64,000 nt of DNA from Escherichia phage EJP2, in sequence record OQ411014.1; one strand, written 5' to 3'. Shown here piece after piece: positions 5,217 to 62,496 of this stretch. The translations under genes were made by a program, and so were the position numbers. The notes below the pieces were generated by a model. The model was given only the letters and a program-made list of their open reading frames with translations. It was not told the DNA's origin and searched no databases. The number at the start of each line of letters is the position of its first letter. The first letter of the stretch is position 1.

Positions 5217-5549
5217 ATGCTAAATGTAAACGTTCAAGGTAATGTAGAAATCACTGACGCAATTCATGAACATATTCTGGCTGAAGCGGATCATCTAGAA
5301 AAGTACAGTACTGATAAAGTACTGGAACTTGATGTTCACGTGAAAAAAGAACACAAAACTCAATACACTGTAACAATCGTTGGTAACGGCAAATCCAGTA
5401 CTGCCAACGCTGCTGATTTATACAAAGCAATCACTGACTCCTTTGGTAAAATGGATAAAGTGCTTGGTAAAGATAAGAGTGTAAAAATCAGTCGCCGTAA
5501 CAATCCTGTTCATCCTGTTGAAATTGACTTGACAGAAGACGAAGAGTAA
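5217..5549 (+). CDS. hpf: ribosome hibernation promoting factor / RaiA (YfiA) homolog
   Basis: NVEITDAIHEHILAEADHLEKY...DLYKAITDSFGKMDKVLGKDK aligns along its length with the bacterial HPF/YfiA family. ATG at 5217 with AGAGAGGTG RBS. Confidence 0.75.
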   Translation: MLNVNVQGNVEITDAIHEHILAEADHLEKYSTDKVLELDVHVKKEHKTQYTVTIVGNGKSSTANAADLYKAITDSFGKMDKVLGKDKSVKISRRNNPVHPVEIDLTEDEE

Positions 5550-5561
5550 TACATAATACAA

Positions 5562-6242: not shown

Positions 6243-6657
6243 TATGAAAATAGAACCTGAACGCATTGCTAAACTAAAACAACTCATGGAACATACGTTA
6301 GAACTTCCACGAGAAAATCTAACATCATTCACAACCAAACCTTGGTGTACAGGTTGGTGGGTTAGTGATTATGTTTATGCTGATTATGACCACAACGAGC
6401 TAATGATTTGTGTACTGAAAAGTGACGTGGTGTGGGGACAGACTGGTAAGTTATACATAAGTTCAAATCACGTTCAATTGATAAAAACTGCACCACCGTT
6501 TACACTTAGCGTTCCGAGAATCAGTACTGAAGAAGAGTATTTTCAACAGTCAACACTTCATGATTTGACAAATTTGGACTTGGATTTCTTTTTGACTTGT
6601 AATAAACTCTATTCACTATGTTGCAGTTTACACACGATTGGGGATACAGATGTATAG
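6243..6657 (+). CDS. paralog-family protein 1 (conserved STEEE-YFQ-LHDL-LDLDFF C-terminus)
   Basis: First of four tandem paralogs. C-terminal ISTEEEYFQQSTLHDLTNLDLDFFL. Start set at ATG 6243 by alignment with paralog N-termini. Confidence 0.55.
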
Positions 6658-7042
6658 TCGTATGCTAAAAGAACTGAATGAACTTCTGGTGAATGTATTG
6701 GGATGGCCTGCTGATAATTACAGATACATCAGAGAACGTGATTTAGGAACCATCAGAGATTGCTGGGTGAATAAATTCACATTCGCAGAAGATAATTGTG
6801 GTGATGTTTCGGTATCTTTGTCTAAATGTTCGGATATTGATTTTTGTTACATCAAGATATTGGAAGATGCAGTGGAGTTCCGAAAAGGATTGTCTACGAT
6901 TTGGAGTTACCCACGATTGAGTACTGAAGAAGAGTTTTTTCAATTATCAGTACTGCATGATACATCTGGCTTGGATTTGGACTTCTTTTTGAATTGCACT
7001 AAACTATACAACCTGGGCAAAATTGCACTAATAGAGGGATAA
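6650..7042 (+). CDS. paralog-family protein 2
   Basis: C-terminal LSTEEEFFQLSVLHDTSGLDLDFFL. ATG at 6650 with GGGGA RBS. Overlaps the upstream stop. Confidence 0.55.
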   Translation: MYSRMLKELNELLVNVLGWPADNYRYIRERDLGTIRDCWVNKFTFAEDNCGDVSVSLSKCSDIDFCYIKILEDAVEFRKGLSTIWSYPRLSTEEEFFQLSVLHDTSGLDLDFFLNCTKLYNLGKIALIEG

Positions 7043-7043
7043 C

Positions 7044-7454
7044 ATGGCTATGAATCCAAATAAAGTAGTACAGCTAAGAGATTTACTACCGTACATTTTA
7101 GAACTTCCTGAGAAAGCACATAAACGATTGTCCTTCCGATATGAAGTTGGTGGTGGGTGGATCAATGACTTTGTGAATGTATTTTTCATCAATGACAAGC
7201 TCACAGTTTCCGTGACTGCTGATGTGGAGTTTAAAACTGGTTACTTCACTATAAGCGAAAATACAGTTGAATATTACACTTCCAATAAAGGTGGTGCGAA
7301 ACCGGAAATAACGTACAAACTTGTCAGTACTGAAGAAGAGCATTTCCAGGAGTCACTAATTCATGATTTAACACTTTTAGATCTGGACTTCTTCCTGAAC
7401 TGTGCTAAAATATACGCACTATGTGATGATTTGATCACGATTGATTATTATTGA
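7044..7454 (+). CDS. paralog-family protein 3
   Basis: C-terminal VSTEEEHFQESLIHDLTLLDLDFFL. GAGGGA RBS. Confidence 0.6.
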   Translation: MAMNPNKVVQLRDLLPYILELPEKAHKRLSFRYEVGGGWINDFVNVFFINDKLTVSVTADVEFKTGYFTISENTVEYYTSNKGGAKPEITYKLVSTEEEHFQESLIHDLTLLDLDFFLNCAKIYALCDDLITIDYY

Positions 7455-7462
7455 GGATTATA

Positions 7463-7864
7463 ATGTACAATAGTGTAATGATGCAGCATTTCACTACAAT
7501 GATTGGTGCTGCCATGAATAGTCCTAAACTGAAAACGTTACGCATCATTGATGGTGCGTGCTGGATTACAGAAAATGCTTTTATCTGGATGCATGAGAGT
7601 CGTGATAAATTAACTATCACAATAAAGCCATCATTTAGTTTAGAAGAGATACTACAACATAGTAGTATTGATATCAAACATGATAGTATAGATATTCGTA
7701 ACTCCCATAACCCAAAAGGTATTAATATCCCACGTATTAGTACTGAAGAAGAGTACTTTCAACAAAGTACTATTCATGATTTATCAAATTTCAACCTTGA
7801 TTTTTTCAAACAATGTGCAGTACTGTTCGATAAAACATGGGATCAACTTACATGGTGTAAGTAG
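7463..7864 (+). CDS. paralog-family protein 4
   Basis: C-terminal ISTEEEYFQQSTIHDLSNFNLDFF. ATG at 7463 with GAGGA RBS. Confidence 0.55.
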   Translation: MYNSVMMQHFTTMIGAAMNSPKLKTLRIIDGACWITENAFIWMHESRDKLTITIKPSFSLEEILQHSSIDIKHDSIDIRNSHNPKGINIPRISTEEEYFQQSTIHDLSNFNLDFFKQCAVLFDKTWDQLTWCK

Positions 7865-7891: not shown

Positions 7892-9001
7892 ATGAAAAAG
7901 TATTTGGTTGGTGGTTTTGTACGCGATAAGCTACTTGGCTTACGTCCTAAAGACAAAGATTATGTCTTGGTAGGAGCGACCCCGCGTGATATTCAGTACT
8001 TAAAAAGTATTGGATATGAGCAGGTTGGTGCAGACTTCCCTGTGTTCTTGGATAAGGACGGCAATGAGCACGCACTTGCCCGTACTGAACGCAAGGTGTC
8101 TGATGGCTATAATGGCTTTGAAGTGAATACACAAGGTGTAACGCTTCAGGAAGACTTGTATCGTCGTGATTTGACCATCAATGCGATTGCCTTTGACCCA
8201 CAGTTAAAGGTACACGTAGACCCATATGGTGGCAAAGAAGACCTAAAGAACAAAGTACTGCGACATGTATCTGAACATTTTGAAGAAGATCCAGTACGTA
8301 TTCTGCGTATCGCTCGTTTCAGTGCACGTTATTCGGACTTTACAGTACATGAAAGTACTGAATCGTTGATTCGCCGTATGATCAATCGTGGCGATATTTC
8401 TGAATTGACTAAAGAGCGAGTGTACGTAGAATTCGAGAAAGCATTCTCCGAAGAAGAGCCAGTTATCTTCCTGGAGAAGCTATCCAAATGGGGAGCCATG
8501 AGTAAGTTGATTCCTGGTAATCCTGAAAGTACTTACAAGACTATTGAATACATTAGTTCCAATTGTACTTTAGCGTATAAGGATTTTTACTTGTGGGCTG
8601 AACTAATTGGTTCTAATGAAGTACAAAAAGATGGAGTCTTTGGTCAGGTCAAGCTACCATCGCGTTACTCTAAGTTCAGTGCGTATGTATGCAAGCACGC
8701 GGATAGTATCAAGAATTTCCGTAAGAGCACCCCAGAAGAAATGGTAAATATTCTTACTGAGATGAGCGTAAAGAACAACGGTGGTGAAGAGTACTTGTAC
8801 AAAGTACTGGAATACTTTATCCTACGTAAAGAGATTGATTTGGACTTAGAAGATTTGATTATTCGAGTTTATGATCGCTTTGAGAATACGGTCATTGGTA
8901 ATATTGATCAGATGCTTAAAGATGGAACTATCACTTCACGTGAAATTCCTTCTTTTGTGAAAGAGAAGCGAATCGCTGAGGTGGAAAAAATCTTCAAATA
9001 A
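7892..9001 (+). CDS. cca: CCA-adding tRNA nucleotidyltransferase (class II head domain, no HD domain)
   Basis: N-terminal LVGGFVRDKLLG...DKDYVLVGATP...GADFPVFL...ALARTERK...RRDLTINAIA closely matches bacterial CCA-adding enzymes. At 369 aa it lacks the C-terminal HD domain. Confidence 0.9.
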   Translation: MKKYLVGGFVRDKLLGLRPKDKDYVLVGATPRDIQYLKSIGYEQVGADFPVFLDKDGNEHALARTERKVSDGYNGFEVNTQGVTLQEDLYRRDLTINAIAFDPQLKVHVDPYGGKEDLKNKVLRHVSEHFEEDPVRILRIARFSARYSDFTVHESTESLIRRMINRGDISELTKERVYVEFEKAFSEEEPVIFLEKLSKWGAMSKLIPGNPESTYKTIEYISSNCTLAYKDFYLWAELIGSNEVQKDGVFGQVKLPSRYSKFSAYVCKHADSIKNFRKSTPEEMVNILTEMSVKNNGGEEYLYKVLEYFILRKEIDLDLEDLIIRVYDRFENTVIGNIDQMLKDGTITSREIPSFVKEKRIAEVEKIFK

Positions 9002-9002
9002 A

Positions 9003-9032
9003 TTGAGATATTTTCGAAAAAAGTGATATATT
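9003..9032 (+). promoter_or_regulatory. early promoter (TTGAGA -35, TGn TATATT)
   Basis: TTGAGA 9003-9008, TG 9024-9025, TATATT 9027-9032. Confidence 0.45.
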
Positions 9033-9064: not shown

Positions 9065-9742
9065 ATGCGATATACATGCGGGATAATATTTTATCGAAAC
9101 GGTCAGATACTTGTAGGTCACACGACTGGTCAGAGTCATTGGGATTTACCGAAAGGTAAGACTGAAGGTTCTGAGACATTCAAGGAAGCGGCAGTTCGTG
9201 AATGCTATGAAGAAACTGGATACAGTATTGATGAACGAGATTTACTGTACTTAGGTGATGTATCATACAGAAAGGGAAAGCGTTTAGTACTGTTCTTTTA
9301 CACAGCCAAGACGAAACCAATTGCTGAAGAGTTGCAATGTATCAGTACTTACACGAATAAGTACGGTATTGTACGTCCAGAGTTGGACAAATTCAAGTAC
9401 ATAGACATTGAGGACTGTGAACTCTACTTGACTGAACGGATGTGTGATAGTATAATCAAAGCTATTACACAATTTGATAAAAAGACAAATAAAAAGGAAG
9501 ATAATATGAAAGTTGTAATTTATGGTCGTAAAGCTGGTTGTAAGTGGTGTACTACTGCTAAAGAAGTTTGTGAAACTAACTCAATTGATTTTGATTTCAT
9601 TGATTTAGATGAAGCTGGTATTGATGGTGCTAAACTCGCTGAAATTTGTGGCACTCCAGTACGTACTGTTCCACAAATTTTCGTTGACGATCAACACATT
9701 GGTGGTTGTACTGAGTTTATTTCGCACCTATCCAAAATGTAA
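9065..9742 (+). CDS. Nudix hydrolase joined in-frame to a glutaredoxin-like domain
   Basis: Complete Nudix box GKTEGSETFKEAAVRECYEETGY. C-terminal 78 aa is glutaredoxin/NrdH-like (CKWC, TVPQIFVDDQHIGG) and has its own internal ATG at 9506 with an AAGGAAG RBS, but no stop separates the two domains. Confidence 0.7.
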   Translation: MRYTCGIIFYRNGQILVGHTTGQSHWDLPKGKTEGSETFKEAAVRECYEETGYSIDERDLLYLGDVSYRKGKRLVLFFYTAKTKPIAEELQCISTYTNKYGIVRPELDKFKYIDIEDCELYLTERMCDSIIKAITQFDKKTNKKEDNMKVVIYGRKAGCKWCTTAKEVCETNSIDFDFIDLDEAGIDGAKLAEICGTPVRTVPQIFVDDQHIGGCTEFISHLSKM

Positions 9743-9750
9743 GGTTTCAA

Positions 9751-10002
9751 ATGTCAAGTCTTCAAGAATTCCATAACAAAAGTTCTGCACAAGCCCAGCG
9801 ACTTGCTAAACATTTTGGTGTAGAACTCAAGATGCCGGATTTAGCAGAAATAGAAGCGAAAGCAAAGCATCGCATCATGTTGATGGAGAAGTATCATGAG
9901 CAGAAAGATATGTACGATGCAGCGATTCATAAACTGCTTGACATTGTACCTGCTGATGTATTACAATCTATCATATCGAAACTGCTAAATTCTTCGAAAT
10001 AA
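9751..10002 (+). CDS. hypothetical protein
   Basis: 83-aa ORF. No recognisable motifs. Confidence 0.5.
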   Translation: MSSLQEFHNKSSAQAQRLAKHFGVELKMPDLAEIEAKAKHRIMLMEKYHEQKDMYDAAIHKLLDIVPADVLQSIISKLLNSSK

Positions 10003-10350: not shown

Positions 10351-10851
10351 ATGAATAACATCACACATCACGTAGGAAATCTTTTCAACTTATATAAAGA
10401 AGTAGGTGAAGAGAATAACAGTACTGATAGTGAAGTAATGAACGTTATTATTCATGGTTGTAACGCACAAGGTCGTATGGGTTCTGGTTTTGCTAAAGAA
10501 TTACGTGCACGTTTTCCTGGTGCTTATAACGAATATAAAAAACAGTACGAAAGTACTGGACTTCAGTTAGGAAAGAACGTATACTACTTACCACATGATG
10601 AAAACACCCTTATCGTAAATGCTATCACTCAAGAGTATTACGGATATGATGGTAAGAAGTACGTTAGTTATGACGCAATTGATGATTGTATGATTGAACT
10701 AAATACTCTACTTTCTGGAATGGATGGAAATATCCAAATTCACTTCCCAAAAATCGGAGCCGATTTAGGTGGTGGTAATTGGGAAGTAATCAAAAGTATC
10801 ATTGAAACACGGGTAATCTTTGGTACTAAGCATCTATATACCCTAGTATAA
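10351..10851 (+). CDS. macro domain protein, TARG1/OARD1-like ADP-ribosyl hydrolase
   Basis: HGCNAQGRMGSGFAKELRARFPG and PKIGADLGGGNWEVIKSIIE match the RMGAGIA and RIGCGLDRLQWENV segments of TARG1-type macro domains. Confidence 0.7.
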   Translation: MNNITHHVGNLFNLYKEVGEENNSTDSEVMNVIIHGCNAQGRMGSGFAKELRARFPGAYNEYKKQYESTGLQLGKNVYYLPHDENTLIVNAITQEYYGYDGKKYVSYDAIDDCMIELNTLLSGMDGNIQIHFPKIGADLGGGNWEVIKSIIETRVIFGTKHLYTLV

Positions 10852-10882: not shown

Positions 10883-11215
10883 ATGGCTACTGAAAAAGCA
10901 CAAATCGTCGTAAAACTACTACACATTGCAGGTCAAGGTCCAGTACTAGCAGTACTACAAGGTGAAACCAACGATTCCCTAATCACCATGCATCCAGCAC
11001 AACTTGGTCAAGATGAGAATGGCGATATTCAAATCCTATCCTATCTTGGTGGTCTAGTTGCTGAAGATGCACCAGTAGTATTCATGAAGTCTAACATTGT
11101 TGCGGTATGTGAAGTTGAACCGACTCTAGGTAAAGAATACGTTTCTGCTGTAGAAGCATTGACAAAATCCTCTGTTGGTGTTATTATGCCTCCAGAAAAG
11201 AAAATCATTCTATAA
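10883..11215 (+). CDS. hypothetical protein
   Basis: ATG at 10883 with AAGGA RBS. No recognisable motifs. Confidence 0.5.
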   Translation: MATEKAQIVVKLLHIAGQGPVLAVLQGETNDSLITMHPAQLGQDENGDIQILSYLGGLVAEDAPVVFMKSNIVAVCEVEPTLGKEYVSAVEALTKSSVGVIMPPEKKIIL

Positions 11216-23749: not shown

Positions 23750-24130
23750 ATGATGATGATACCGCCAACTGATCGTACTGACTCCCAGATGGAAGTACTT
23801 TCTAAAATACGGTCAGTACAAGTGGAAAAATCTGACTTAACCGACCGTTTAGTACTGAAGTCTATCTTTGAAAATTACAGATCCGGTTCGGGTATGAGAT
23901 TGAGTAAATTTGGTAAAGAGATGTGCATTGAGCATGAACTCTATGAGTTTGCTAAGTTTAATATCCCTAAAGGAACTAAGAAATCAGTACTGTTTATAAC
24001 GCTTGACAGATTATGCAAAGAGCCGTATTATGTAGAAGGTTTCGATGTGTTTCTGTCGGATGCACAAGTAATAACAGAACTGACATTTTGTTGTGATGAT
24101 TTTGAAAAATTGATTAAACTTTATTTGTGA
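23750..24130 (+). CDS. hypothetical protein
   Basis: 126-aa ORF. No recognisable motifs. Confidence 0.5.
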   Translation: MMMIPPTDRTDSQMEVLSKIRSVQVEKSDLTDRLVLKSIFENYRSGSGMRLSKFGKEMCIEHELYEFAKFNIPKGTKKSVLFITLDRLCKEPYYVEGFDVFLSDAQVITELTFCCDDFEKLIKLYL

Positions 24131-24154
24131 CAAACCAATAAAGTGTGATATAAT
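24125..24154 (+). promoter_or_regulatory. early promoter (TTGTGA -35, TGn TATAAT)
   Basis: TTGTGA 24125-24130, TG 24146-24147, TATAAT 24149-24154. Confidence 0.45.
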
Positions 24155-24301
24155 AGTTTTACAGTTTACAAGGCACTCTGATTTAAAATAAAATAAAATC
24201 AAAAGTGCCTTCTCTTTTGCCAAAATTTATGATACACTATAAATTCTGACAAAAGCATCTCACTAAAACGAGATGAGTTAAAAAAAGATTTAAAAAAGTG
24301 G

Positions 24302-24330
24302 TTGACAAGGCATTAAGAAGTACGTATAAT
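24302..24330 (+). promoter_or_regulatory. perfect-consensus sigma70 promoter
   Basis: TTGACA 24302-24307, exactly 17 bp, TATAAT 24325-24330. Upstream of the MoxR/VWA operon. Confidence 0.6.
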
Positions 24331-27261: not shown

Positions 27262-27298
27262 ATGCGTAAGTTCAGGATGTTCTTACGCATTTTATTTT
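27262..27298 (+). terminator. rho-independent terminator
   Basis: ATGCGTAAG ... CTTACGCAT stem followed by TTTTATTTT. Confidence 0.55.
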
Positions 27299-27326
27299 GA
27301 GATATCATAAGAAATTGTGATATAAT
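27297..27326 (+). promoter_or_regulatory. early promoter (TTGAGA -35, TGn TATAAT)
   Basis: TTGAGA 27297-27302, TG 27318-27319, TATAAT 27321-27326. Confidence 0.5.
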
Positions 27327-32995: not shown

Positions 32996-35900
32996 TTATA
33001 CGTTACGTTGTGCAATAAACACGTCAATGGTAGAACCTACACCGCTGTATACTAACTGACAGATAGATACAGAGTTTGGAGTGGTGTTAATCGCAGTATC
33101 AGCACCAATCACACTATATGGAGGTGGTAGAGTTAGCGAGTGGTTACCAGTTGCGTCTTGTGTTACATATACGAACCAAGAACCTGCATATCCTGGGGTG
33201 ATTGGTAGGTTACCAACGGTAGTATCACCTGTTAGGGTAATGTTATACACGTTAGAAGTACCATCAGGAGTCCAAGTACCAGTTGCAGAAGCAGCCGGAG
33301 CAGCTTTAACTAGGTATTTGCTAGTACTTACCGATTCAGTTACTAGGTCGCCGATATCAGCAGTTAGTGTACCAGTTACTGTTAGGTTGTTAGCATTAAT
33401 TGTACCAGTACTATCAATATCAACAGCAGTTACTTTACCAGTGAAATCGGAGGTTCCAGATACAGTAAGGCTTGTAGCAGTGATTGCACCTGTGGTTACA
33501 GCAGCTAAGGTAGAAGTACCAGTTACTGTTAGAGTATCAGTTTCTAGACCGCCAGTAATTGCAGCACCATCAGCACTAACAGTTAGTTTACCACCAGTAG
33601 TTAGTGTAGTACCTACGCTCGCCGCAGCAGAGAAAGTAGCAGTACCAGTGCTGGATAGAGTACCAGTTACTGTGGTTGCACCAGTAATTGCAGCACCATC
33701 AGCACTAACAGTTAGTTTACCACCAGTAGTTAGTGTAGTACCAACTGTTGCAGCACCAGTAACTTCAAGAGTTACACCTTTCAAGAAGGAAGTGGAAGTA
33801 ACAGATTGTGCAACTAGATCAGAAGTACTTTGGTCTAGTGTACCAATGATACGACCATTAACAGTAAAGTCACCAGTACAAACTGCGTTACCGTTAAGCT
33901 GTAGGTTGTTGTTTACAGAACCACTTGCACCGATAACAGCAGAGTCAATTGTTGCTTGACCTTTAACTTCGAGTGTAGTACCAACAGATACCGCTTGGGA
34001 AGTTGTTACAGACCGTGGAGAAATATCACGACCAGTTAAGTCGATTTGAGCAGTGATAGTACCATCAACATCCAAGTTACCTGTGATGTGGGTGTTACCA
34101 GAAATCTCAGCAATATATTCTTCTTCGTCCCATACTAGAGTACCTACGTGTAGGTTTGTGGTAGAGGTCTTCTTGAAAGAAGCGGTTGCAGTTGCAGCAC
34201 CGTTCTGTGCGATATTACCAGCAGTTACTGTTAGGTCACCAGTAGTAATTGTTGCACCGTTATCAGAAGTTACAGAACCAAATTTACCTGCACCTGAAGC
34301 AGTGATTGCACCACCTAGGGTTGTTGCACCAGTAGTTACGGTTAGACCGTTATCAGAGGTTACAGAACCAAATTTACCTGCACCAGTACTGGTTAGAGTA
34401 CCACCAACAGTTGTGTTGCCAGTTACACCTAGTGTAGTACCAACAGTTGCACCAGCAGCAGTAGAAACACTATTAACAGATAGGTCAGCACCCGCGAGGT
34501 TTAGACCACCAGCAGGAGTGAATGTACCATTAACGGTCATGTCACCAGTTGCTACCGTGTTACCTGTGATATCTAGTGATGCTAGAGTTGCTTTACCTGA
34601 AGTACTTAGAGTACTAACAGATGTTGCATCAGCAGTTACATCAGCTAGGGTAGATGCACCAGTTACATTTAGTGTAGTACCGATATTTGCACTGTTTAGA
34701 GTTGCTAGACCAGAAGTACTTACAGTACTTAGGGAAGTATTACCAGATACACCTAGGGTTGTAGTAACGCTTGCAGCGTTCGCATTGACAGTTCCTAGAG
34801 TAGATACGCCAGTTACTTCTAGAGTAGTGTTAACTTTAGCACCGTTTAGTGTTGCCAAACCAGTAGTCGTTAGTGCATCAGTAGTTACATCAGCTAGGGT
34901 AGATGCACCAGTTACATTTAGAGAACCACCAACAGTTGTGTCGTTAGTACTGGATAGTGTTAGTGCACTTAGGTTAGTTGCACTTAGGTCGAATTGACCA
35001 TCAACAGTCAAATCACCAGTTACATGAGCGTTACCGAGAGAGTTAAGAGACTTAACAGTTACATCAGTTGTGCTTAGGTCGATTGCTCCAGCAGTTAGTG
35101 TACCAGTTGCATGGAAATCACCAGTTACGTTGGTAGATTTAGCAAGTTGTACAGTAGTTCCAGCAGTTGTAAAGGAAGCAGCAGATACAGCACCAGTTGC
35201 GGATACAGATGAAGCACCAATTGCACCAGCAGTTACACCAGCAAGAGTAGTTTCACCAGTTACTGCTAGAGTACCAGAAGCAGTTACATCAGCCAGGGTT
35301 GAAGCGGCAGATACAGTTACAGCACCTAGAGTTGCTTCGTCGCTTGCTAATTTAGGGAATGTATTTGTTTTAGCAGCATCAGTAGATACAAAACTTAAAG
35401 CAGTTACATCAGCACCAGATAAGTCAACAGTACCAGATACAGCTAGGTTGCCACCGATTGTTGCACCTTCAGTAGTCGTAATAGACTTGGAAGCAATATC
35501 AACAGAAGATAGGTCAAAACCACCAACTGGGGTAAATGTCCCATTAACTGTTAGGTTTTTATCAGCAACAACATCACTTGCTAGAGTTACTGTGCCAGCA
35601 CCAAGTGGAGCAGCTTGAACAGTTGCGGATTCTACCGAAGCACCTTTAACAATACCAGTTGCAGTAATGTTTGTTGCAGAGATATCACCAATGGATTCAA
35701 TACCGCCATTAGGCTTGAAAGAACCAGTTACAGTTAAGTCTTTTGCAGCGACTGCATTACTTGCCAATGTTACTGTACCAGCACCAGCAGCAGCACCTTG
35801 AATAGATGGAACAGTTGCAGTTGCAGCACTTACATCACCAGTTGCAGCGAAAGATACAGCACTGATATCACCAGTTGCATCAATATCACCAGCATTTACA

Positions 35901-38605
35901 GTACCAGCAGTGATGGTAGTACTAGATAGAGTTGGGATGGTGCTTTGTGCAACAGTTGCAGTAATAGATTTAACATTAATATCCGCAGCACTTAGGTCGA
36001 ATGTACCGTCAACAACAAGGTTTCCACCAACGTTTACGTTACCTGTAGTGGTTACAGATGCAGCATCAACAGCAGTAGTACTTAGGTCAATTGAAGCTGG
36101 GGTTAGAACACCAGAAATAGTTACGTCATTTGCAAAAGTGGTATTACCAGTAATGCTTGGAACAACTAATGAATCAGCAGTTACTGAAGCTAATGTTGAA
36201 GCACCAGTTACGCTTAGAGATGCAGCAGATGCAGCACCGATTGCAGAAGCACCAGTTACATTTAGAGAACCACCATTAACTTCACCAGTTGCAGTGACAG
36301 AAGCAGCAGTTACAGCACCAGTTGCCGCGACAGATTCAGCAGAAACGCCAGCAGTTGCTACAACAGAGTTCGGTGCGATATCAAGACCGTCAACGTTTGC
36401 AGCAGCAGTTACACCAGTAGTAGTACCAGTTACAACTAGGTCTTTAACAGTTACAGTTTGACCATTAACAGTTACGTTACCACCAATTGTTGCACCAGCA
36501 GTTGCAGTGATTTCACCTGTTACGCCTAGAGTACCACCAACAGTTGCGTTGCCAGTTACAGCAGCGTTACCACCTACAGATAGATCAGTACCAACAGTAG
36601 TGGTGGTTACAGATTCTAGAGTATTACCATTAAGGGCAGCAGTTGCTACAACAGAGTTAGGTGTTAGGTCTTGACCACTAACATCAACAGTTAGACCAGT
36701 TACAACACCAGTAAATTCAACATCAGCAAGAATTGATTTACCATCAACTTTTAGTTGTGGTTGTGCAGTACCGATAGTACTGTTACCTTGGATGTGAACA
36801 TAATCCATAGTGGATTTGCCTAGTGCAGTTAGACCAGCAGTACCACCAACGTTACCAACAGATGCGTTCTGTAGTAGTGCTTTATCAGCTACAAGGTCAG
36901 AAGTTGCGATTTTGTATGGTTCGATGCTGGATTTGGTGTCGCTTGGGCGAGCCGGATCGTTATATGCAAATTGTAAAATACCGTGGTTACCAGATTCGCC
37001 ATCAATAACGTTTAGAGTACTAAAGTTAGCGATTGAAGTTCTTGCACCAGTTAAGTTACCAGATAGAGTTAGGTTTTGTAGAGTACTTGGACCAGAAACA
37101 TTTAGAGATGTTGCATTAATATCAGTAAATGAAAGACCAGATACTGCACCAGTAATAATCAAATCACCAACTGTGGTTTTTTGTAGTACTGTATCACCAG
37201 TTACTTCTAGTTTTGGTGTTGCTTCACCAATAGTACTGTTACCAGTAATGCTTAGGTAATCAATAGTTGCTTTACCTAGTGCTTTTAGACCAGCAGTACC
37301 TGCTACATCACCAACTTCAGCAGCTTTAAGAACAGCTTTGTCAGCTACTAGATCAGAAGTTGCCATTTTGTATGGTTCGATACTTGATTTTGTGTCATTT
37401 GGACGAAGTGTGTCATTATAAGCGAATTGTACAATGCCGTGGTTTCCAGCAGTACCGTCATCAACAGTAAAAGTACTGAAGCGTGCTACTGAAGAGTTAC
37501 CACCAGTTAGGTTGCCACTCATGTTAACGCCAGCTAGAGTTGATGCACCAGATACGTTTAGAGTTGCTACGTTTAGGTCAGTGAATGAAAGACCAGATAC
37601 TGCACCAGTAATTGTTAGGTTACGAACTGTAGTATCTTGTAGTACTGATTTACCAGTTACTTCTAGGAAGTTATCAGCAGTACCAATAGTACTGTTACCA
37701 GCAATTTTTAGGTAATCGATTTTTGCATTACCGAGAGCGTGTAGACCGTGGTCATCGCCACCACCAACAACACCAACGGTTGCTACGTCAGTTTGGATAT
37801 CGTTGGTATCAATTTCTTGAGTACTAACTTTGTACGGCTCAAGGCTAGTTTTGATATCAGAAGGACGTAGTGGGTCGTTATATGTGAACTGAACACTACC
37901 AGTTTGACCGGAAACACGATATTGGTTTACGGATACAGTACTGTTTGCACCAGTTACGTTACCTTGGATAGTAGTTGCACCTTTAATGTTTACGTTGTTA
38001 AGATCACTTAGTGTTTTAACTTCGATGTTATTGAAAGTACCAGCATCCATAGTGTAAGTGCCACTTAGAGTACCATTGATTTCCACATCACCTAGTGTTG
38101 TTTTGCCAGTTACGTCTAGAGTACTGTCAAGTACTGCTGCACCTTTAGCATGTAGGGCTTCAGTAGTTGTACTACCTAGAGCTACAGTACTAGTTGGTTC
38201 AGTAGAAAGATTGCCATTAACTTTTGCATTACCAGATACGGTTAGGCTATCAGCAGAAGTTTCTTTAAATGAAGCACTACCAGTAGTTTGAGTAATATTT
38301 GAATTAAAAGTTGCTTCGGCATCAACAGCCAAAGTACCTTTAACACTTACTGTATCAGTTAGAGCGTCACCAAGAACGGTATTACCAGATACGTTAAGAT
38401 TTCCGAGATTAGAAGTACCAGTACTTGTAATGTCAGCGAATTGAGCAGAACCCGTCACTGTGATAGCAGTGAATGTGGCATCTGCGAAAGAAACAGTGCC
38501 TTCTACAGAAAGATTTTGCTTGAATACAGCATTACCCTTCAATAGTAGGTCTTTGTCAATCGTTGCTCCACCGAGAACGCCTAGATCAGTTTTAATTGAA
38601 TACAT
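32996..38605 (-). CDS. giant repetitive tail fiber protein (1869 aa)
   Basis: GGAGGG RBS. Long runs of VTG/SGN/ATG beta-helix-like repeats and three ~150-aa tandem repeat units. Confidence 0.7.
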   Translation of the reverse strand: MYSIKTDLGVLGGATIDKDLLLKGNAVFKQNLSVEGTVSFADATFTAITVTGSAQFADITSTGTSNLGNLNVSGNTVLGDALTDTVSVKGTLAVDAEATFNSNITQTTGSASFKETSADSLTVSGNAKVNGNLSTEPTSTVALGSTTTEALHAKGAAVLDSTLDVTGKTTLGDVEINGTLSGTYTMDAGTFNNIEVKTLSDLNNVNIKGATTIQGNVTGANSTVSVNQYRVSGQTGSVQFTYNDPLRPSDIKTSLEPYKVSTQEIDTNDIQTDVATVGVVGGGDDHGLHALGNAKIDYLKIAGNSTIGTADNFLEVTGKSVLQDTTVRNLTITGAVSGLSFTDLNVATLNVSGASTLAGVNMSGNLTGGNSSVARFSTFTVDDGTAGNHGIVQFAYNDTLRPNDTKSSIEPYKMATSDLVADKAVLKAAEVGDVAGTAGLKALGKATIDYLSITGNSTIGEATPKLEVTGDTVLQKTTVGDLIITGAVSGLSFTDINATSLNVSGPSTLQNLTLSGNLTGARTSIANFSTLNVIDGESGNHGILQFAYNDPARPSDTKSSIEPYKIATSDLVADKALLQNASVGNVGGTAGLTALGKSTMDYVHIQGNSTIGTAQPQLKVDGKSILADVEFTGVVTGLTVDVSGQDLTPNSVVATAALNGNTLESVTTTTVGTDLSVGGNAAVTGNATVGGTLGVTGEITATAGATIGGNVTVNGQTVTVKDLVVTGTTTGVTAAANVDGLDIAPNSVVATAGVSAESVAATGAVTAASVTATGEVNGGSLNVTGASAIGAASAASLSVTGASTLASVTADSLVVPSITGNTTFANDVTISGVLTPASIDLSTTAVDAASVTTTGNVNVGGNLVVDGTFDLSAADINVKSITATVAQSTIPTLSSTTITAGTVNAGDIDATGDISAVSFAATGDVSAATATVPSIQGAAAGAGTVTLASNAVAAKDLTVTGSFKPNGGIESIGDISATNITATGIVKGASVESATVQAAPLGAGTVTLASDVVADKNLTVNGTFTPVGGFDLSSVDIASKSITTTEGATIGGNLAVSGTVDLSGADVTALSFVSTDAAKTNTFPKLASDEATLGAVTVSAASTLADVTASGTLAVTGETTLAGVTAGAIGASSVSATGAVSAASFTTAGTTVQLAKSTNVTGDFHATGTLTAGAIDLSTTDVTVKSLNSLGNAHVTGDLTVDGQFDLSATNLSALTLSSTNDTTVGGSLNVTGASTLADVTTDALTTTGLATLNGAKVNTTLEVTGVSTLGTVNANAASVTTTLGVSGNTSLSTVSTSGLATLNSANIGTTLNVTGASTLADVTADATSVSTLSTSGKATLASLDITGNTVATGDMTVNGTFTPAGGLNLAGADLSVNSVSTAAGATVGTTLGVTGNTTVGGTLTSTGAGKFGSVTSDNGLTVTTGATTLGGAITASGAGKFGSVTSDNGATITTGDLTVTAGNIAQNGAATATASFKKTSTTNLHVGTLVWDEEEYIAEISGNTHITGNLDVDGTITAQIDLTGRDISPRSVTTSQAVSVGTTLEVKGQATIDSAVIGASGSVNNNLQLNGNAVCTGDFTVNGRIIGTLDQSTSDLVAQSVTSTSFLKGVTLEVTGAATVGTTLTTGGKLTVSADGAAITGATTVTGTLSSTGTATFSAAASVGTTLTTGGKLTVSADGAAITGGLETDTLTVTGTSTLAAVTTGAITATSLTVSGTSDFTGKVTAVDIDSTGTINANNLTVTGTLTADIGDLVTESVSTSKYLVKAAPAASATGTWTPDGTSNVYNITLTGDTTVGNLPITPGYAGSWFVYVTQDATGNHSLTLPPPYSVIGADTAINTTPNSVSICQLVYSGVGSTIDVFIAQRNV
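33552..33742. repeat. 62-bp exact direct repeat pair within the fiber gene
   Basis: Identical 62-mers at 33552-33613 and 33681-33742, encoding duplicated SVGTTLTTGGKLTVSADGAAITG. Confidence 0.65.
34257..34383. repeat. near-exact direct repeat of about 37 bp within the fiber gene
   Basis: CGTTATCAGARGTTACAGAACCAAATTTACCTGCACC occurs at about 34257 and 34347, encoding GAGKFGSVTSDNG twice. Confidence 0.55.
36560..37950. repeat. three tandem ~450-bp repeat units inside the giant fiber gene
   Basis: Encoded segments (I/S)VQF(T/A)YND..RP(S/N)D.K(T/S)S(L/I)EPYK ... IDYL.I.GNSTIG recur three times. The nucleotide similarity is visible but diverged. Confidence 0.6.
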
Positions 38606-46477: not shown

Positions 46478-46507
46478 TTGAGACAAATGCAAAAGATGTG
46501 ATATAAT
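46478..46507 (+). promoter_or_regulatory. early promoter (TTGAGA -35, TGn TATAAT)
   Basis: TTGAGA 46478-46483, TG 46499-46500, TATAAT 46502-46507. Upstream of the ClpA-like gene. Confidence 0.5.
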
Positions 46508-48844: not shown

Positions 48845-48878
48845 ATAAAAAGGAGCCTTTCGGCTCCTTTTTTTTATT
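48845..48878. terminator. bidirectional terminator between ClpA-like gene and giant gene
   Basis: A-run, GGAGCC-TTTC-GGCTCC, T8 run. Confidence 0.6.
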
Positions 48879-51800
48879 TGATTAATCCAATAAGAATTAC
48901 AGGTGCAATATCCAAACTATCAGAATAAGTACTCAATGGGATTGGTTCATAACCATCACCGTATACTGCAATTTCATTAGTGTTACCTAAATTCAATCCA
49001 GTACTGGTATACGTTACATCCTTTTCGTAATAATTCTGAACAGTACCGTTATAAGCTCGAACAACGAAGTTGTTTTTGCGAACAAGCATTTGTTCTGCAT
49101 TAGATAGGATAATATCGTCAGGTACAACACCAGGCATTGTAGCGATACCATTTTCATAGGTCATGGTGCTTGCCATCTTCGGCTGACTTACGTGAGTGAA
49201 GCTGTCAAACATTGACTTATAAACAACAGTAACAGTACTGTTAGTGTTAATATACACACCATCAACTAGTGGTTTACTATAGATCCAAGAACCATTGTTA
49301 GCAGTAGGGTTAATTTCAGCTACATCGTATTCAAATACTGAAATTTCCAACGCGTCGGTCATTTTAGTACGAACCAATTCACTTAGTACACCTTTACCGT
49401 ACACTGGTAGGTAATATCCATTATCAACCACAGTTCCATCTTCTAGTGTTTGTGTCTCATTAGTACTGTACCATACATCATAGTCATTGGTAGTTAGTTC
49501 TGGTTCATAATTACCACCAATTAAGGAAGTGTCATAGAACACATCATAATCTAGAGCATCGACTCTGTAAGAACGGTTATTAGTATAACGAGTAATTCCA
49601 CCAGCACTAAACTCTGGGTCATTGAAAGATGTAACTCTAACAATGTTGATACTAGTTGGTTTGTTCTGGTTGTAAAGTGATTCATCAGTACTGTTATAAG
49701 TACTAGTGAAAGTTAATCCACCAATAGTTACAGTATTACCAGATACCGAAGTTACTTTAAACAACTTAGGACGATTAGCATCTTTAATTGTTGCTACACT
49801 CAATACAGTTTTCCAAGAACCATCGTTAATAGCGACTGCGTAATCTGAATTGTCTGGGACAAATACAGCTACCGTTTCGCCAACAACGAAATCATTATCA
49901 CCGTCAAGTTCAACAACACCACTTACTGAAGTTACGTTCTTAATACGATATGAATATTGAATTTCATTCTTTTCCAAAATGCTTCTATTCATGTATTCAA
50001 GAGCAACATCATAACGTGGAATACTTACAAGGGCTTCTGAGCGATTATATGGGTTTTGTACGATATAACCTTCAATATTAAAGTTACCTTGATCACGTAA
50101 TTGTGTCTGTACTGAAGTATCAAATCCATATCCATCAACTGTGAATCTTAGCTGTGCCATATCACGTTTAGATGGGTTAAGTTCTGAAATGTCTACAAAT
50201 ACAGGATCGTTAGTACTGTTAGCGACACCAACAACGGAGTTAATAATAGTTTTAGTTTGTGATTCTAGAGCTAAGTTATCGAATGCGTTTTTATCATCAA
50301 AGAATACTTCTTTATTCAAGCCTGACATGATTTGTAAGAAATCACTATATAGTGGGTTCTTATCATCTTCTGGAACGTCATCAAGTGATGGTTGGCTTAG
50401 GCGAACCATATCCCCATCAGTGATATACACTTCTTCCATATATTCTTCTATGCCAACATTCGAAGGAATGCTATAATCTTTTCCTGGAGTAGTTTCACTC
50501 ATTAGGAAAACATATTTCCTAGGCATCAACACTACTGCATAAGCATCAACATCAAGATTCTCTAATACTTTCTCTGCTGCACTATACGGGTCAGTTTCAT
50601 CAGGATTATAAGTCCCTCTAAGTGCTGATAGAACGTGTACTGCATCAGTATAGAAACGATTAGATTCTGGATTATCATCAGTTTCAGGGATTACATATTT
50701 CCATGTATATAAACCGTATTCATATTCCATGTACTCTAGAATCTCAATGTGAGAGAATCCAGGGTTTGCTTCCTTAACTTGATCATAAATCAAATCATAC
50801 ATTGGTTTGCTGTAAGAGATATAACCATAGTTTTCACCATTGCTTGCACTAAATCCAAACGGCAACCTTGTGCTTGGGTTATCACTCAGTACTAGACCTT
50901 TAAATGGACAACCTACTTCAGAACCAATAGTTTCATCAGATTTGGAAGTTGTTAGCTTCAAACGGTTTGAAAGCGTGTTGTACTGAACATAGTTGCGTAC
51001 TTCACTAACCGATTCAGATTTCTCTTCTGCTTCTGCAATTACACGATTAAGTGTAGCTGTAAATTCATCAGATGCTTCAACATCATTAATTAGTGTTGCA
51101 TACATTTGGTCTAAACCATATTTCAAACCACTACTAATATTCATGTTCGGATAGTACTGCGTAATACCGTTCATGATTAATGTTTCCAACTCAGCATTAT
51201 TAATTTCAGGGAAAGTATATGCATAACGCTGGAGCATGTAGTGGGAGCCTTTTACAAGGAAGTCACCAGTATTAGATTGGTATTTCTTGTTCACGTTTTC
51301 TAGTGTTGTTATATCTGCCATATCGGAAGATGGTTTGCACTGGAAGTTGTCAAAGTCAAGAATAACATCAATCTCTTGGAAACGGCGGTTTGGTAGTACG
51401 AAGTTATTTGGTAGTGAGCCTACGATTTCCCACTTCTGACTTACATCGTTGAATTGAGCATATTCGTAATCCCAAATATCTTTTTGTGTTTTAACCCAAG
51501 CACCATCAACATAGATATAACCGTTAGGATCTAAATCGTTTAATAGACCGTTGATTTCATCTTCATCAGATGTCTTCTGCTCTATTTGTGAACGGATTTT
51601 AGTTCTGTATGGTTTCACTTCTTCAAAGTACTGTACGATTTCATTTATTAAATTACCATCAGTAGTTGATCTTTGTTGTAGTGATTGGTCTAGACCAATA
51701 ATATAAATGTAAGAGGTTTTGAATACCCAGTCCACGACTTTCTGCTCAGTGTGTACGTACTTAACCATGTCAAATACTACAGTACTTTGTACAGAGTTGA

Positions 51801-54800
51801 ATGAACCTTTGAGTAGTGCTAATGCTGCACGAACGTTTTTCTCATTATTCGTTAATGCACCATCGCTGTTGTATTGTGAGTAGTTGTTATAAAGAACATT
51901 GTTCAATTGTACAGTGCTCTTCTCACGACCAACTGCTACCCATTGAACTTGACCACGTGATTCAGTTTTTTCATATAATGTCCAGACACCATCGGCATCG
52001 GTAATACGAATCAAATCACCAATCTGGTAGTTTTTAGTGTTAGCAATTTGAATGCTTGTTTCTTCGGTATATTCTGATTCTTCATCAAAACCAACACTAT
52101 ACCAATCAGCATAATCCCAGTAGGTTGTCATATCTAATGAAGTACCAAGCTGATCAATATAGTCAGTTTGCTTAATCATAGTATGTTGACCTTCACCACG
52201 ACTCTCTAGAGTGATAGTTACCGCAGTACCAGAAGTACTTGGGCTATTCATCAAGTGAATGTAACCGTTGTCGTCGTAATGCACAAAGTACACACTAGTA
52301 CGGTTTAGTGGTGCTGGTAATGTACCATTAGTATTAACCAGTACTGCGTCATTCTCTACAAATTTGTTTTCATTTGTGGTGATAACCAATTCGTTGTTAT
52401 AAGTTAGTACTTTAAATCCAACTTCGTTCGGGTTCACAGCGTCAGTCTTCTTAAAGAAGATATCATCCATTACTACAGTGTCAGTTGTCATGTTAATATG
52501 CTTGTACACATTGTTTGCTGAATCAACAAACGTCCTACGAGCTTCTATAACGTCCATAAACCATGTTTTGTTTGCACCTAGACCCAAGTCAGTACTTGGA
52601 TAAGATAACTCAACCACGTTGCCGTTTAGGAGGGTTTCTTGAGACTCCAAAGAGTTCCATAGAGAATTCCAAATAGCTGGGTTGAAGTTGTATTCTTCAC
52701 CTTCTTTACAAAGTTGATACTGTTCATGTTTAATAACATCATCATTATTTTCTTTGTAAGAAACAGTCAATATACTCTTATCATCGTTAATGTCGTGCTG
52801 CATATTAGATAGAATAAAAGAATTCTCATCTACTGGGGAGAACCAAGGAACTCCGAGTACTGAAGGATCAGCAATAATGCGAGCAATCTCATTACAAGAT
52901 TTGGTACGATGCTTAACATGTGGAGTATAGATTGTATCTTTAACCCAGAAGTAATACATTGGCACATAAGTGTTAGTACTAGCATCATATTCAACAAAAT
53001 AAGAATAGTTTTCAGTAACTGCTGTACCGGATGGTAGGTAAGTGGTCTGGCCTTTATTTTGTTTTTGTTGTTCAGTGCAATACTGATCCCAGTTATATGG
53101 TTCTACTGGCGATTTAACCCATTCGTACACATCAATACTACCATGTGGAAGGATTTTACCCCAATTATAACGCTTATATTCTAGAGTCTTATTTACATCG
53201 ACGTTCCCATTAGCATCAAGGATTGGACGAGTATAATCCATGAAGAATGCAGAAGAAGTATCCCACCAAACTTCACCAACTTTATCAGAACCCCAAGCTA
53301 GTAATGTTTCACCATCACTATTGTAGGTTGCTGGGTCACGAGTAGAGGTATATGAAACGTTTGACATTGCCACACCAGGGATAATACCATTGATTGGGTC
53401 ATATGTGTTAATATACATCTCAACAACGTTAGTCATGGAGTTGTAGGTACTTGGGCGGTCGAACAACGAACTGTTAGGTGCTAAGTACTCATATTTTTTC
53501 TGAACGTATGCATCTTTCGCTGCTTTAGTACTGAAACGTGGAACGTATTTGTACATTACAGGTTCTGCACCACTGAAATCAAAATCTACAGTACTGTCGA
53601 ATGCAACAACTATAGTATTTGCAGTAACACCATAGAATTGTGTTTCTTCACGTAGGAAATCAGGCATATAACCGGACTCATCAACGAAGAAGTAAGTATC
53701 ACCATTACTTAGTGTAGATGAAGAACTTAATTCTAGTGTTACTTTCTGTGCTGCGTATTGGTCATCAGTAATAATTGGAGTAATTTTCTTCAAAGTGATA
53801 TTGGTTTTAACAATATCATAGATATTCCAGTTATCATTAGAATCCTGAAGAACCCATACAGACGATGGTAGTGTATTGTAATCGGAAGTATACTTAGAAC
53901 GGTCTTCATAAGCAGTTTGTAGGTCTAGAGTAGTGAATGACACTTCATCTAGAGTTACAGGGCCGATATTTGGCAACTGAATGTTGTCAGATGCACCTTT
54001 ACGCATTGGGAAAGAGAACAAACCATGTGGACGAGTAATCCAACGTGGGTCTACACCTGTTTTACCAAAATAAACGATGTTATTTGCAGTACTGTCCACA
54101 GTTGCATTCTGGTCGAATGTAACCAATTGTGGTTGTTGAGCAAATTCGTTGTTAATTAGTTGGAACTGTAGGTTCTTTTTGCCATATACGTTGCCATATT
54201 CACCGATTTTGAAAGCCCACTCTTGTAGTGCTTTGTAACCTTCGGTATTATAGGTTTTTGATACACGTAGAACACGTTCGAGTACTTGATTAGTACCTTT
54301 GTCACGGATGAAGCCTTTATAGAAATCAACGCGGGCTGGTTCTGATGTGATCATTTCGTTTAAGTAACTTCTGGACTGGTATCCAATTAAATGATTCGCT
54401 AGGGAACGCAATTGAACATCAGATACTGGATTTTCAGTGTCATAATAGTGTCTAAAGTCATCTACTAGTTTTTCAAAGTCAGGTAGTGTGCCAGTTTCGA
54501 GGATAATAAAGCCAGGTGCTTCCAAACGACCATTCCATGAGCCAGTTACATAACCGTACATACGAATCAATTCTTGAATTGAACCATAAGTTGGAATATA
54601 GATGTTATCACCAAAAATAGTTTTATCATCAAACACGATAGCATGTTCATAAGCGATTAAGCTCAAACGAATAAGAGCAATACGCTTGTTGTATTCTTCT
54701 AAACTACGAACAGTGATGATGTTACCGATACGTGCAGTTTCAATTTCATACGGACGAATACCTGTATTATTATCATCTAGTAGAGTCCATAGACCACCAC

Positions 54801-58887: not shown

Positions 58888-58922
58888 TTTATTCTCCATA
58901 AAATTCATTTCTTCATTTGTTT

Positions 58923-62426: not shown

Positions 62427-62496
62427 AATTAATCCTTGCGTTCTAATATGAGTTATATATCTTACGTTTTCTATGCACACGTATTATGAATTTATT

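Follow-up and report, generated by a model that had tools for sequence, protein, structure and literature searches.

A Nudix–glutaredoxin fusion in a clade of Rak2/GAP32-like jumbo phages, with signals that most likely also yield free glutaredoxin

Fusion of adjacent genes and in-frame nesting of genes with internal starts are both known kinds of event. In T7 gene 4A/4B, lambda C/Nu3, phiX174 A/A* and E. coli infB, clpB and cheA, a long product and a short C-terminal product share one reading frame, the short one having its own Shine-Dalgarno (S-D) sequence and start codon, and both products have been shown experimentally. Nudix domains are found joined to other enzymes, as in the NMNAT-Nudix fusion of phage NAD salvage and in proteins that carry an N-terminal Nudix domain of the subfamily considered here and a C-terminal Tpt1/KptA, PTH2 or inositol monophosphatase (IMPase) domain. 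The closest described counterpart of the locus reported here is the pair of separate Nudix and glutaredoxin (Grx) genes of Rak2-like phages (GAP32_187/188, CBB gp193/194, 121Q 540/541 and RaK2 nudE/ORF033), which are translationally coupled and encode orthologous domains.

Here we describe the corresponding locus of Escherichia phage EJP2 (sequence record OQ411014.1), contained in a stretch of 64,000 nucleotides (nt) that we call the window and to which all positions refer. The window is from a member of the Rak2/GAP32-like jumbo myoviruses; in GenBank, the record nearest to it is that of Erwinia phage Hallingskeid, with 77.5% nt identity across 1.4 kb. The locus occupies the same site as the Rak2-like pair, after the gene for the CCA-adding enzyme, and has the same Grx S-D sequence and ATG and the same promoter-like element within the 3′ end of the Nudix part. 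However, the Nudix gene of the pair ends in a stop codon, whereas in the window and in a Hallingskeid-like clade the two frames are joined, so that ordinary translation would yield no free Nudix protein. We propose that this is a lineage-specific Nudix-Grx fusion kept by selection, and that the locus most likely makes both the fusion and free Grx. Unlike the short products of the T7 gene 4A/4B type, the one proposed here is deduced from conservation; it would be a complete, formerly independent enzyme, nested through a recent fusion, and it probably has a dedicated internal promoter as well. The partner domain, a glutaredoxin, also sets the protein apart from other Nudix fusions. What is new is the Nudix-glutaredoxin combination, together with its visible intermediates; the two components are themselves unremarkable, being annotated in numerous phages.

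The fused reading frame and its two domains

On the + strand of the window, an open reading frame (ORF) of 225 codons extends from the ATG at 9065–9067 to the TAA at 9740–9742, with no stop between them in the sequence or in the list of ORFs. The mechanical ORF call starts upstream, at a GTG (9023), but we place the true start at 9065 because all homologues open with MRYTCGIIFY. Pfam searches with the 225-amino-acid (aa) protein matched NUDIX at residues 6–84 (E 6.6e-13; 49.3 bits against a gathering cutoff of 21.1) and Glutaredoxin at residues 150–212 (E 1.6e-11; 47.7 bits against a gathering cutoff of 22.9). A preliminary description of this DNA, made from the sequence alone, had reported a Nudix domain that reads without a stop into a 78-aa glutaredoxin-like domain with its own ribosome-binding site and ATG. 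The open frame and the two Pfam matches, both above their gathering scores, bear out the former, and direct reading confirms the latter to the base: AAGGAAG lies at 9494–9500, with a spacing of 5 nt to the in-frame ATG at 9506–9508, which is codon 148 (9506 − 9065 = 441 nt, or 147 codons).

The Nudix half (aa 1–144; 9065–9496) is a member of the Nudix hydrolase superfamily (PF00293) by profile, by its Nudix box and by its alpha/beta/alpha fold. It matched PHROG 1185, ‘nudix hydrolase’, with an E value of 1.5e-47, and translation of 9155–9223 gives an intact box, G31-KTEGS-E37-TFKEAAV-R45-E46-C47-Y-E49-E50-T-G52-Y53, that fits GX5EX7REUXEEXGU, including the catalytic Glu, and whose residues are at least 90% conserved in our alignment A3. 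The ‘U’ position is Cys47 rather than an aliphatic residue. Foldseek comparison of this part returned RppH, Dcp2, Ap4A hydrolase and YmfB (probability 1.00; E down to 2.6e-9; 16–23% identity). The half reached no NCBIfam equivalog cutoff of the RppH, MutT, NudE and Ap4A hydrolase class (best score 33 bits against 154); with all of these scores far under their cutoffs, we rejected its placement in a substrate-specific Nudix subfamily. Five cysteines of the domain (9065–9475) are conserved across the phage Nudix family, namely C5, C47 (in the box, REC-YEE), C92, C118 and C127; this is an unusually high number for a small cytosolic hydrolase whose gene adjoins that of a glutaredoxin.

The downstream part (9506–9742; 78 aa, Met148 to Met225, plus the TAA) aligned end to end with E. 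coli glutaredoxin 1 (PDB 1EGO; E 3e-14), Met148 pairing with Met1, and scored 85.1 bits against the NCBIfam GrxA equivalog NF008401, barely over the cutoff of 84. We conclude that it is a whole glutaredoxin that begins at the internal ATG. Its score against TIGR02183 (71.9 bits) is under the cutoff of 106.5. The redox-active CxxC, C159-K-W-C162 (9539–9550), aligned to the CPYC of E. coli Grx1, as did the glutathione-binding T201-V-P and G213-G214 with their counterparts. The active site varies among relatives, being CPYC in lineage L012 and CKFC in L007 and GAP32. For related phages it has been proposed that this Grx reduces the class Ia ribonucleotide reductase of the phage, the CBB orthologue supporting NrdAB (PMC5259590). 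In its CxxC, TVP and GG motifs and its passing of the GrxA cutoff the domain resembles E. coli GrxA and the T4 NrdC-type ribonucleotide reductase reductants; it differs from them in having CKWC in place of CPYC, in being linked to a Nudix domain when part of the long product and in that its activity is predicted.

We modelled the fusion protein with AlphaFold2 on an alignment of 39 sequences. The model has a mean predicted local distance difference test (pLDDT) score of 91, exceeding 90 over aa 1–140, and a predicted template modelling (pTM) score of 0.62. A helix at residues 124–144 closes the Nudix fold and is followed by coil (145–149) and by the first strand of Grx (150–154), and the sole block of low confidence is residues 141–150 (mean pLDDT 65). 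The Lys-rich linker, DKKTNKKEDN, comprises aa 138–147 (9476–9505) in the alignment of fused lineages. The model is consistent with two globular domains that are independent of each other and joined by a short tether, without a fixed interface. Covalent attachment of a glutaredoxin to a partner enzyme is also seen in the Haemophilus influenzae peroxiredoxin-glutaredoxin hybrid HI0572 (PDB 1NM3) and in thioredoxin-glutathione reductases, both of which were among the sequence matches of the Grx half. In those hybrids, however, the glutaredoxin hands electrons to the fused partner, whereas a Nudix hydrolase has no redox step; moreover, no interface is predicted here and the linker evolves freely.

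We found no other protein with a Nudix-Grx architecture. There was none in the best 150 of 2671 representative matches that we inspected from a search of 1.84 billion representatives, where the long matches were Nudix-Tpt1, Nudix-PTH2, Nudix-IMPase or multi-Grx proteins; rare fusions of independent origin may lie beyond these 150. There was none among homologues of the Grx half, Foldseek returned no solved chain in the PDB that unites the two domains, and full-text searches of the literature found no mention of the combination.

Origin and upkeep of the fusion

The same uninterrupted frame is present in six further lineages, whose proteins are 76–82% identical to that of the window: the isolate Hallingskeid and the lineages that we designate L007/8, L009–11, L012/13, L014 and L015. 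The Grx ATG stands at nt offset 441 in every fused lineage, and the linkers differ in sequence but are constant in length. The fused coding sequence of Hallingskeid (PQ464590, CDS0470) carries only the label ‘nudix hydrolase’ in GenBank, and the Hallingskeid paper makes no mention of the fused gene. This label hides, throughout the clade, a complete glutaredoxin that is probably also made separately, and gene callers will miss the nested gene.

Two separate genes are found in GAP32, CBB, BF, pEa_SNUABM_12, Kaldavass, 121Q, Munch, RaK2 and the lineages L016, L018 and L019. The first five of these have a Nudix stop followed by a spacer of 21–30 nt before Grx. Coupling is tighter in the others: the Nudix stop lies 1–2 nt 5′ of the Grx ATG in L016, L019, 121Q and Munch, and stop and start overlap as ATGA in L018 and RaK2. 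Where the genes are so tightly coupled, Grx occupies frame +2 with respect to Nudix, and the Grx S-D sequence is already within the Nudix coding sequence. Identity between the window and GAP32 is 75% for Nudix and 53% for Grx. The preliminary description had taken a separating stop in related genomes as evidence against the fusion. This criterion was too simple: the distant relatives do have such a stop, but no member of the window’s own clade has one. The pEa_SNUABM phages and Kaldavass, each of which gave one tblastn piece, were considered as further fusions and rejected, as they have an in-frame TAA or TAG and the spacer of 21–30 nt.

A tree of the CCA-adding enzyme groups the fused loci as a single clade nested within the unfused ones (bootstrap 54.5%, or 95% when the unfused sister L019 is added). 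They are likewise an exclusive clade in a tree of the Nudix domain (support 15%), with no unfused member inside, and there is no revertant within the fused clade among 40 Nudix homologues. On these sequence comparisons, we conclude that the fused state is derived and has a single origin, and that it is an adjacent-gene fusion of the ‘Rosetta stone’ type. The support is modest, and the bootstrap values of both trees weigh against treating monophyly of the fused clade as firm.

The junctions suggest how the frames were joined. In the window, a TAA (9502–9504) lies 1 nt 5′ of the Grx ATG in the −1 frame (TAA T ATG); Hallingskeid has TAA C ATG in the same position and frame, and the junction of 121Q, aaggaaaTAAcATG, is nearly identical to that of Hallingskeid. 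We interpret the TAA as a relic of the ancestral Nudix stop, in which case the fusion arose through an indel that shifted the frame in the A-rich tail of Nudix. The simplest history that we can infer is a single indel of net +1 nt, which would have moved the ATG offset from 434–437 to 441, with the old stop falling out of frame and the Grx ATG coming into frame. The ancestor, a Rak2/GAP32-like jumbo myovirus, would have had a Nudix gene and, directly after it, a gene for a GrxA-type glutaredoxin, with the stop of the former 1–2 nt 5′ of the Grx ATG or overlapping it; because stop and start abutted or overlapped, the Grx S-D sequence, and probably the promoter too, would already have been inside the Nudix 3′ end. 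The indel would date to the last ancestor shared by the Hallingskeid-like clade, and by joining the frames it would have caused every ribosome that starts at 9065 to make the 225-aa protein. The suggestion that these are two genes that lost the stop between them thus appears correct as history, the ancestor having had two tightly coupled genes whose stop was bypassed by a change of frame. The locus would be an unusually clean example of the path from abutting or overlapping, coupled phage genes to a fusion by one frame change, in which the downstream promoter, S-D sequence and start survive inside the new ORF and sister lineages show the intermediates.

Four-fold degenerate sites are 44–68% identical among the fused lineages, and Nei-Gojobori synonymous divergence (dS) is ~1.3–1.5. 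The ratio of nonsynonymous to synonymous divergence (dN/dS) comes to 0.066 in Nudix and 0.148 in Grx; in the linker of 10 codons, where silent sites are saturated, it is ~0.54. The low ratios in the Nudix and Grx parts show that purifying selection acts on both domains, which are therefore functional in the fused state. The linker averages 5.9 single-nucleotide routes to a stop codon, and ~5–8 nonsense events would be expected in it under neutrality, given a synonymous tree length of 4.07. None was observed (P 3.5e-4 to 6.5e-3), suggesting that read-through itself has been kept by selection. It weighs against this argument that the expectation assumes equal substitution rates and relies on a simple neighbour-joining tree and limited sampling. 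Taken together, the comparisons suggest that the fused frame is maintained by selection. Of the two possibilities raised in the preliminary description, then, a genuine fusion is what we see today, apparently persisting under selection throughout the window’s clade. This apparent upkeep suggests a functional link between Nudix and Grx in Rak2-like jumbo phages, and the link is testable because Hallingskeid is in culture.

Expression signals of the nested glutaredoxin

Of the 179 other ATGs that lie in frame inside the window’s long ORFs, only 3 (1.7%) have an anti-S-D pairing as strong as that of AAGGAAG (−5.6 kcal/mol). An S-D sequence is present at −12 to −7 from the Grx ATG in all seven fused lineages, with pairing energies of −5.6 to −8.4 kcal/mol; those at the Grx starts of unfused relatives are −5.3 to −5.7 kcal/mol, that is, equal or weaker. 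The GG core is held by differing codon pairs, AAG-GAA (K-E), AAA-GGA (K-G), AGG-GAG (R-E), AAG-GGG (K-G) and AAG-GAT (K-D), such that the encoded residue varies but the nucleotide motif does not. Codons used at this site are rare in the phage (AGG 6%, GGA 14%, GGG 6%, AAG 33%), and GGT, the usual codon for Gly (70%), is never used there. ATG148 is invariant across the fused lineages, and residues 147 and 149 are highly variable. When the peptide of each lineage was resampled with synonymous codons, the S-D sequence was retained in a mean of 28% of trials, the product over lineages being 6e-5. These comparisons indicate that the start signals are conserved beyond coding constraint (7/7 against ~28% expected per lineage), with a significance that is approximate since the lineages are related. 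We found no RNA structure that would mask or regulate the internal start: the minimum free energy is −9 kcal/mol per 100 nt, weaker than that of shuffled controls (z +0.95).

A near-consensus sigma-70 motif, TTGACT-17-TATAAT (11/12), lies inside the Nudix coding region at 9428–9456. Its −10 element ends 50 nt 5′ of the ATG at 9506, which is the first ATG 3′ of the motif. Sigma-70 motifs of at least 11/12 number 16 on the + strand of the window and 0 on the − strand, where 1.2 are expected per strand (13-fold enrichment); several are 21–48 nt 5′ of gene starts, and some of these (9938, 11159) are embedded in the ORF ahead, at its 3′ end. The position homologous to 9428–9456 reaches 10/12 or better, including the key A2 and T6, in 6/7 fused lineages and in 11/18 of all lineages. 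At the −35 position, TTG, which accounts for 16% of Leu codons, is used in 10/11 close lineages. The record of phage fHe-Yen9-03 annotates −35 and −10 signals at the homologous position, and for CBB, a related phage, a published analysis predicts RpoD-like promoters (PMC5259590). No intrinsic terminator was found between the Nudix and Grx domains. On this evidence, the motif is probably a working promoter, which would give rise to a Grx-only transcript.

We therefore favour a locus with two products. Long transcripts would arise upstream, for example from a TG-extended sigma-70-like motif, TTGAGA-18-TATATT (10/12; 9003–9032), which lies in the space that separates the CCA-enzyme gene from the Nudix start and is a candidate promoter of the full-length mRNA. 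Translation from 9065 would then give the 225-aa protein, with two independently folded domains, intact catalytic motifs and a short, flexible tether. The free 78-aa glutaredoxin would be made from a short transcript of the internal promoter, by internal initiation on the long mRNA, or in both ways. Since the old Grx signals (promoter-like motif, S-D sequence and ATG) have been kept, we consider that free Grx is most likely also made. The comparisons show the fusion itself, its history and the patterns of conservation; from them we infer that there are two products, that the promoter is active and what the enzymes do. The additional internal initiation that the preliminary description had envisaged thus finds indirect support in an S-D sequence and ATG kept in 7/7 diverged fused lineages and in a probable promoter within the Nudix part.

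Alternatively, the frame may be fused but the internal S-D sequence, ATG and promoter-like motif non-functional, the 225-aa protein being the sole product. The motifs would then persist as a free by-product of the Lys/Glu/Gly linker and of a conserved peptide, YLTERMCxSII, or because too little time has elapsed. Several points weigh on this side and against free Grx, and each has to be set beside the pattern that it would explain. The Lys/Glu/Gly-rich linker favours purine runs, and codon shuffling, like resampling, gives a match of S-D strength in ~28% of cases per lineage; however, all seven S-D sequences are at least as strong as those of real, unfused Grx starts, even though the linker is saturated at silent sites and dS elsewhere is ~1.3–1.5. 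The product of 6e-5 overstates the significance because the seven lineages are related and non-independent, but rare codons, and codon pairs that change the residue (E/G/D) while GG stays, are difficult to reconcile with a by-product of the peptide, as is an invariant ATG148 among hypervariable neighbours. For the promoter, synonymous resampling of YLTERMCxSII alone reaches 10/12 or better in ~20% of cases and 11/12 or better in ~4%, and two lineages have a degraded motif, namely L015 (CTGACA...TATGAA), which branches first among the fused ones, and the sister, L019; against this stand the 13-fold enrichment and strict strand specificity of near-consensus motifs in the phage. We consider it unlikely that the fusion is the only product.

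A second alternative is recoding in the manner of dnaX, in which ribosomes would slip by −1 at AAA AAG pairs and stop at a TAA in the −1 frame, giving free Nudix plus the fusion. The linker of the window contains AAA AAG at 9479–9484 and 9491–9496, with −1-frame TAA codons (9490–9492 and 9502–9504) within 2–3 codons of each, and an AAA AAR pair is present at aa 138–141 in 7/7 fused lineages. Such Lys-Lys pairs are, however, expected in a Lys-rich tail, in which AAA is the commoner Lys codon (67%). The slippery heptamer of E. coli dnaX is A AAA AAG; it is complete in L014 only, the other lineages beginning with T or G. In 5/7 lineages the −1 frame closes ahead of the Grx ATG, and in the window and Hallingskeid 1 nt ahead of it, but in L009 and L014 it extends 26–38 nt into Grx, and the −1-frame TAA is more simply explained as the relic of the old stop. 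The weak fold at the junction (z +0.95) offers no stimulatory stem-loop. With the full heptamer confined to L014, no stable downstream structure and a −1 stop ahead of the ATG in only 5/7 lineages, we judged the case for a dnaX-type programmed −1 frameshift to be weak, and this reading to be very improbable.

That the genes are really separate, and that an error of sequencing or assembly removed the stop (for instance, an A-run miscount at 9472–9496), is next to impossible: the junction is A-rich with homopolymer runs, and one added A in the run at 9474–9478 would bring the TAA at 9490 into frame, but the identical 225-aa protein is on seven contigs, four of them from different runs (SRR35836908, DRR827121, SRR25245152 and ERZ794978) with identical junction DNA, and six diverged lineages, a cultured isolate included, have differing in-frame linkers of the same length. 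The concern over a sequencing error, voiced in the preliminary description, can accordingly be set aside. An error-ridden record can display a spurious continuous junction, as does that of Escherichia phage CMSTMSU (MH494197.1; L028), which gave a single tblastn piece across the junction, under one coding sequence. We considered this phage as a second, independent fusion and rejected it, as the record is marked UNVERIFIED and its CCA-enzyme and Nudix genes are split into short coding sequences. Because these neighbouring genes are fragmented, whereas those of the window are intact, the continuity in CMSTMSU is indel noise and is not countable as a fusion.

Possible function and neighbouring genes

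The fused ORF is flanked on one side by the gene for the CCA-adding tRNA nucleotidyltransferase (7892–9001) and on the other by small ORFs, a macro-domain/phosphatase gene (10351–10851) and a gene for a gp13-like neck protein. Distant homologues of the Nudix half (P0103, P0165, P0196, P0069 and P0144) join it to a Tpt1/KptA RNA 2′-phosphotransferase, a PTH2 peptidyl-tRNA hydrolase or an inositol monophosphatase. These partner domains, together with the flanking CCA-enzyme and macro-domain genes, hint at a role in RNA-end or ADP-ribose metabolism.

A more speculative reading is that the tethered Grx keeps the Cys-rich Nudix domain reduced or deglutathionylated, in a partnership common to all Rak2-like phages. 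Bearing on this are the tight coupling of the gene pair in every relative, the apparent upkeep of the fused frame by selection, the five conserved cysteines, Cys47 among them, and the RppH/Ap4A-hydrolase-like fold of a Nudix domain encoded among RNA-end and ADP-ribose genes. If it were true, hydrolysis of RNA 5′ ends or dinucleoside polyphosphates by the Nudix domain would respond to redox conditions in the infected cell, the tether making this control intramolecular. With no interface predicted (pTM 0.62) and a freely evolving linker, we regard redox control as improbable.

The gene that follows Grx differs among relatives. A YqeY-like ‘tRNA amidotransferase’ gene is present after Grx in GAP32, CBB, BF, Kaldavass and pEa_SNUABM_12 (compare L002 3743–4156 and L005 2187–2600) and is absent from this position in the window, in all other fused loci and in L016, L018, L019, 121Q and Munch. 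In its place, directly 3′ of Grx, is an ORF of ~83 aa (9751–10002 in the window) with no assigned function.

Just 5′ of the CCA-enzyme gene are three tandem paralogous small genes on the + strand (6638–7042, 7044–7454 and 7451–7864), encoding 134, 136 and 137 aa. They share a C-terminal motif, STEEE.F.Q....HD...LDLDFF..C, and resemble a local expansion of a gene family whose function is unassigned.

The + strand motifs of at least 11/12 include those at 1869–1896, 5529–5557, 9938–9967, 11159–11187, 24003–24330, 27297–27326 and 46478–46507. A cluster of three precedes the gene at 24449, and three copies (43162, 45323 and 45655) are antisense to − strand genes. The window thus provides a set of strongly strand-biased sigma-70-type motifs for a little-studied group of phages. 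It also contains very large − strand ORFs at 32996–38605 (1869 aa) and 48874–58908 (3344 aa), as well as an ORF at 58965–62480 (1171 aa); these probably encode giant structural or tail-fibre proteins, as in Rak2-like phages.

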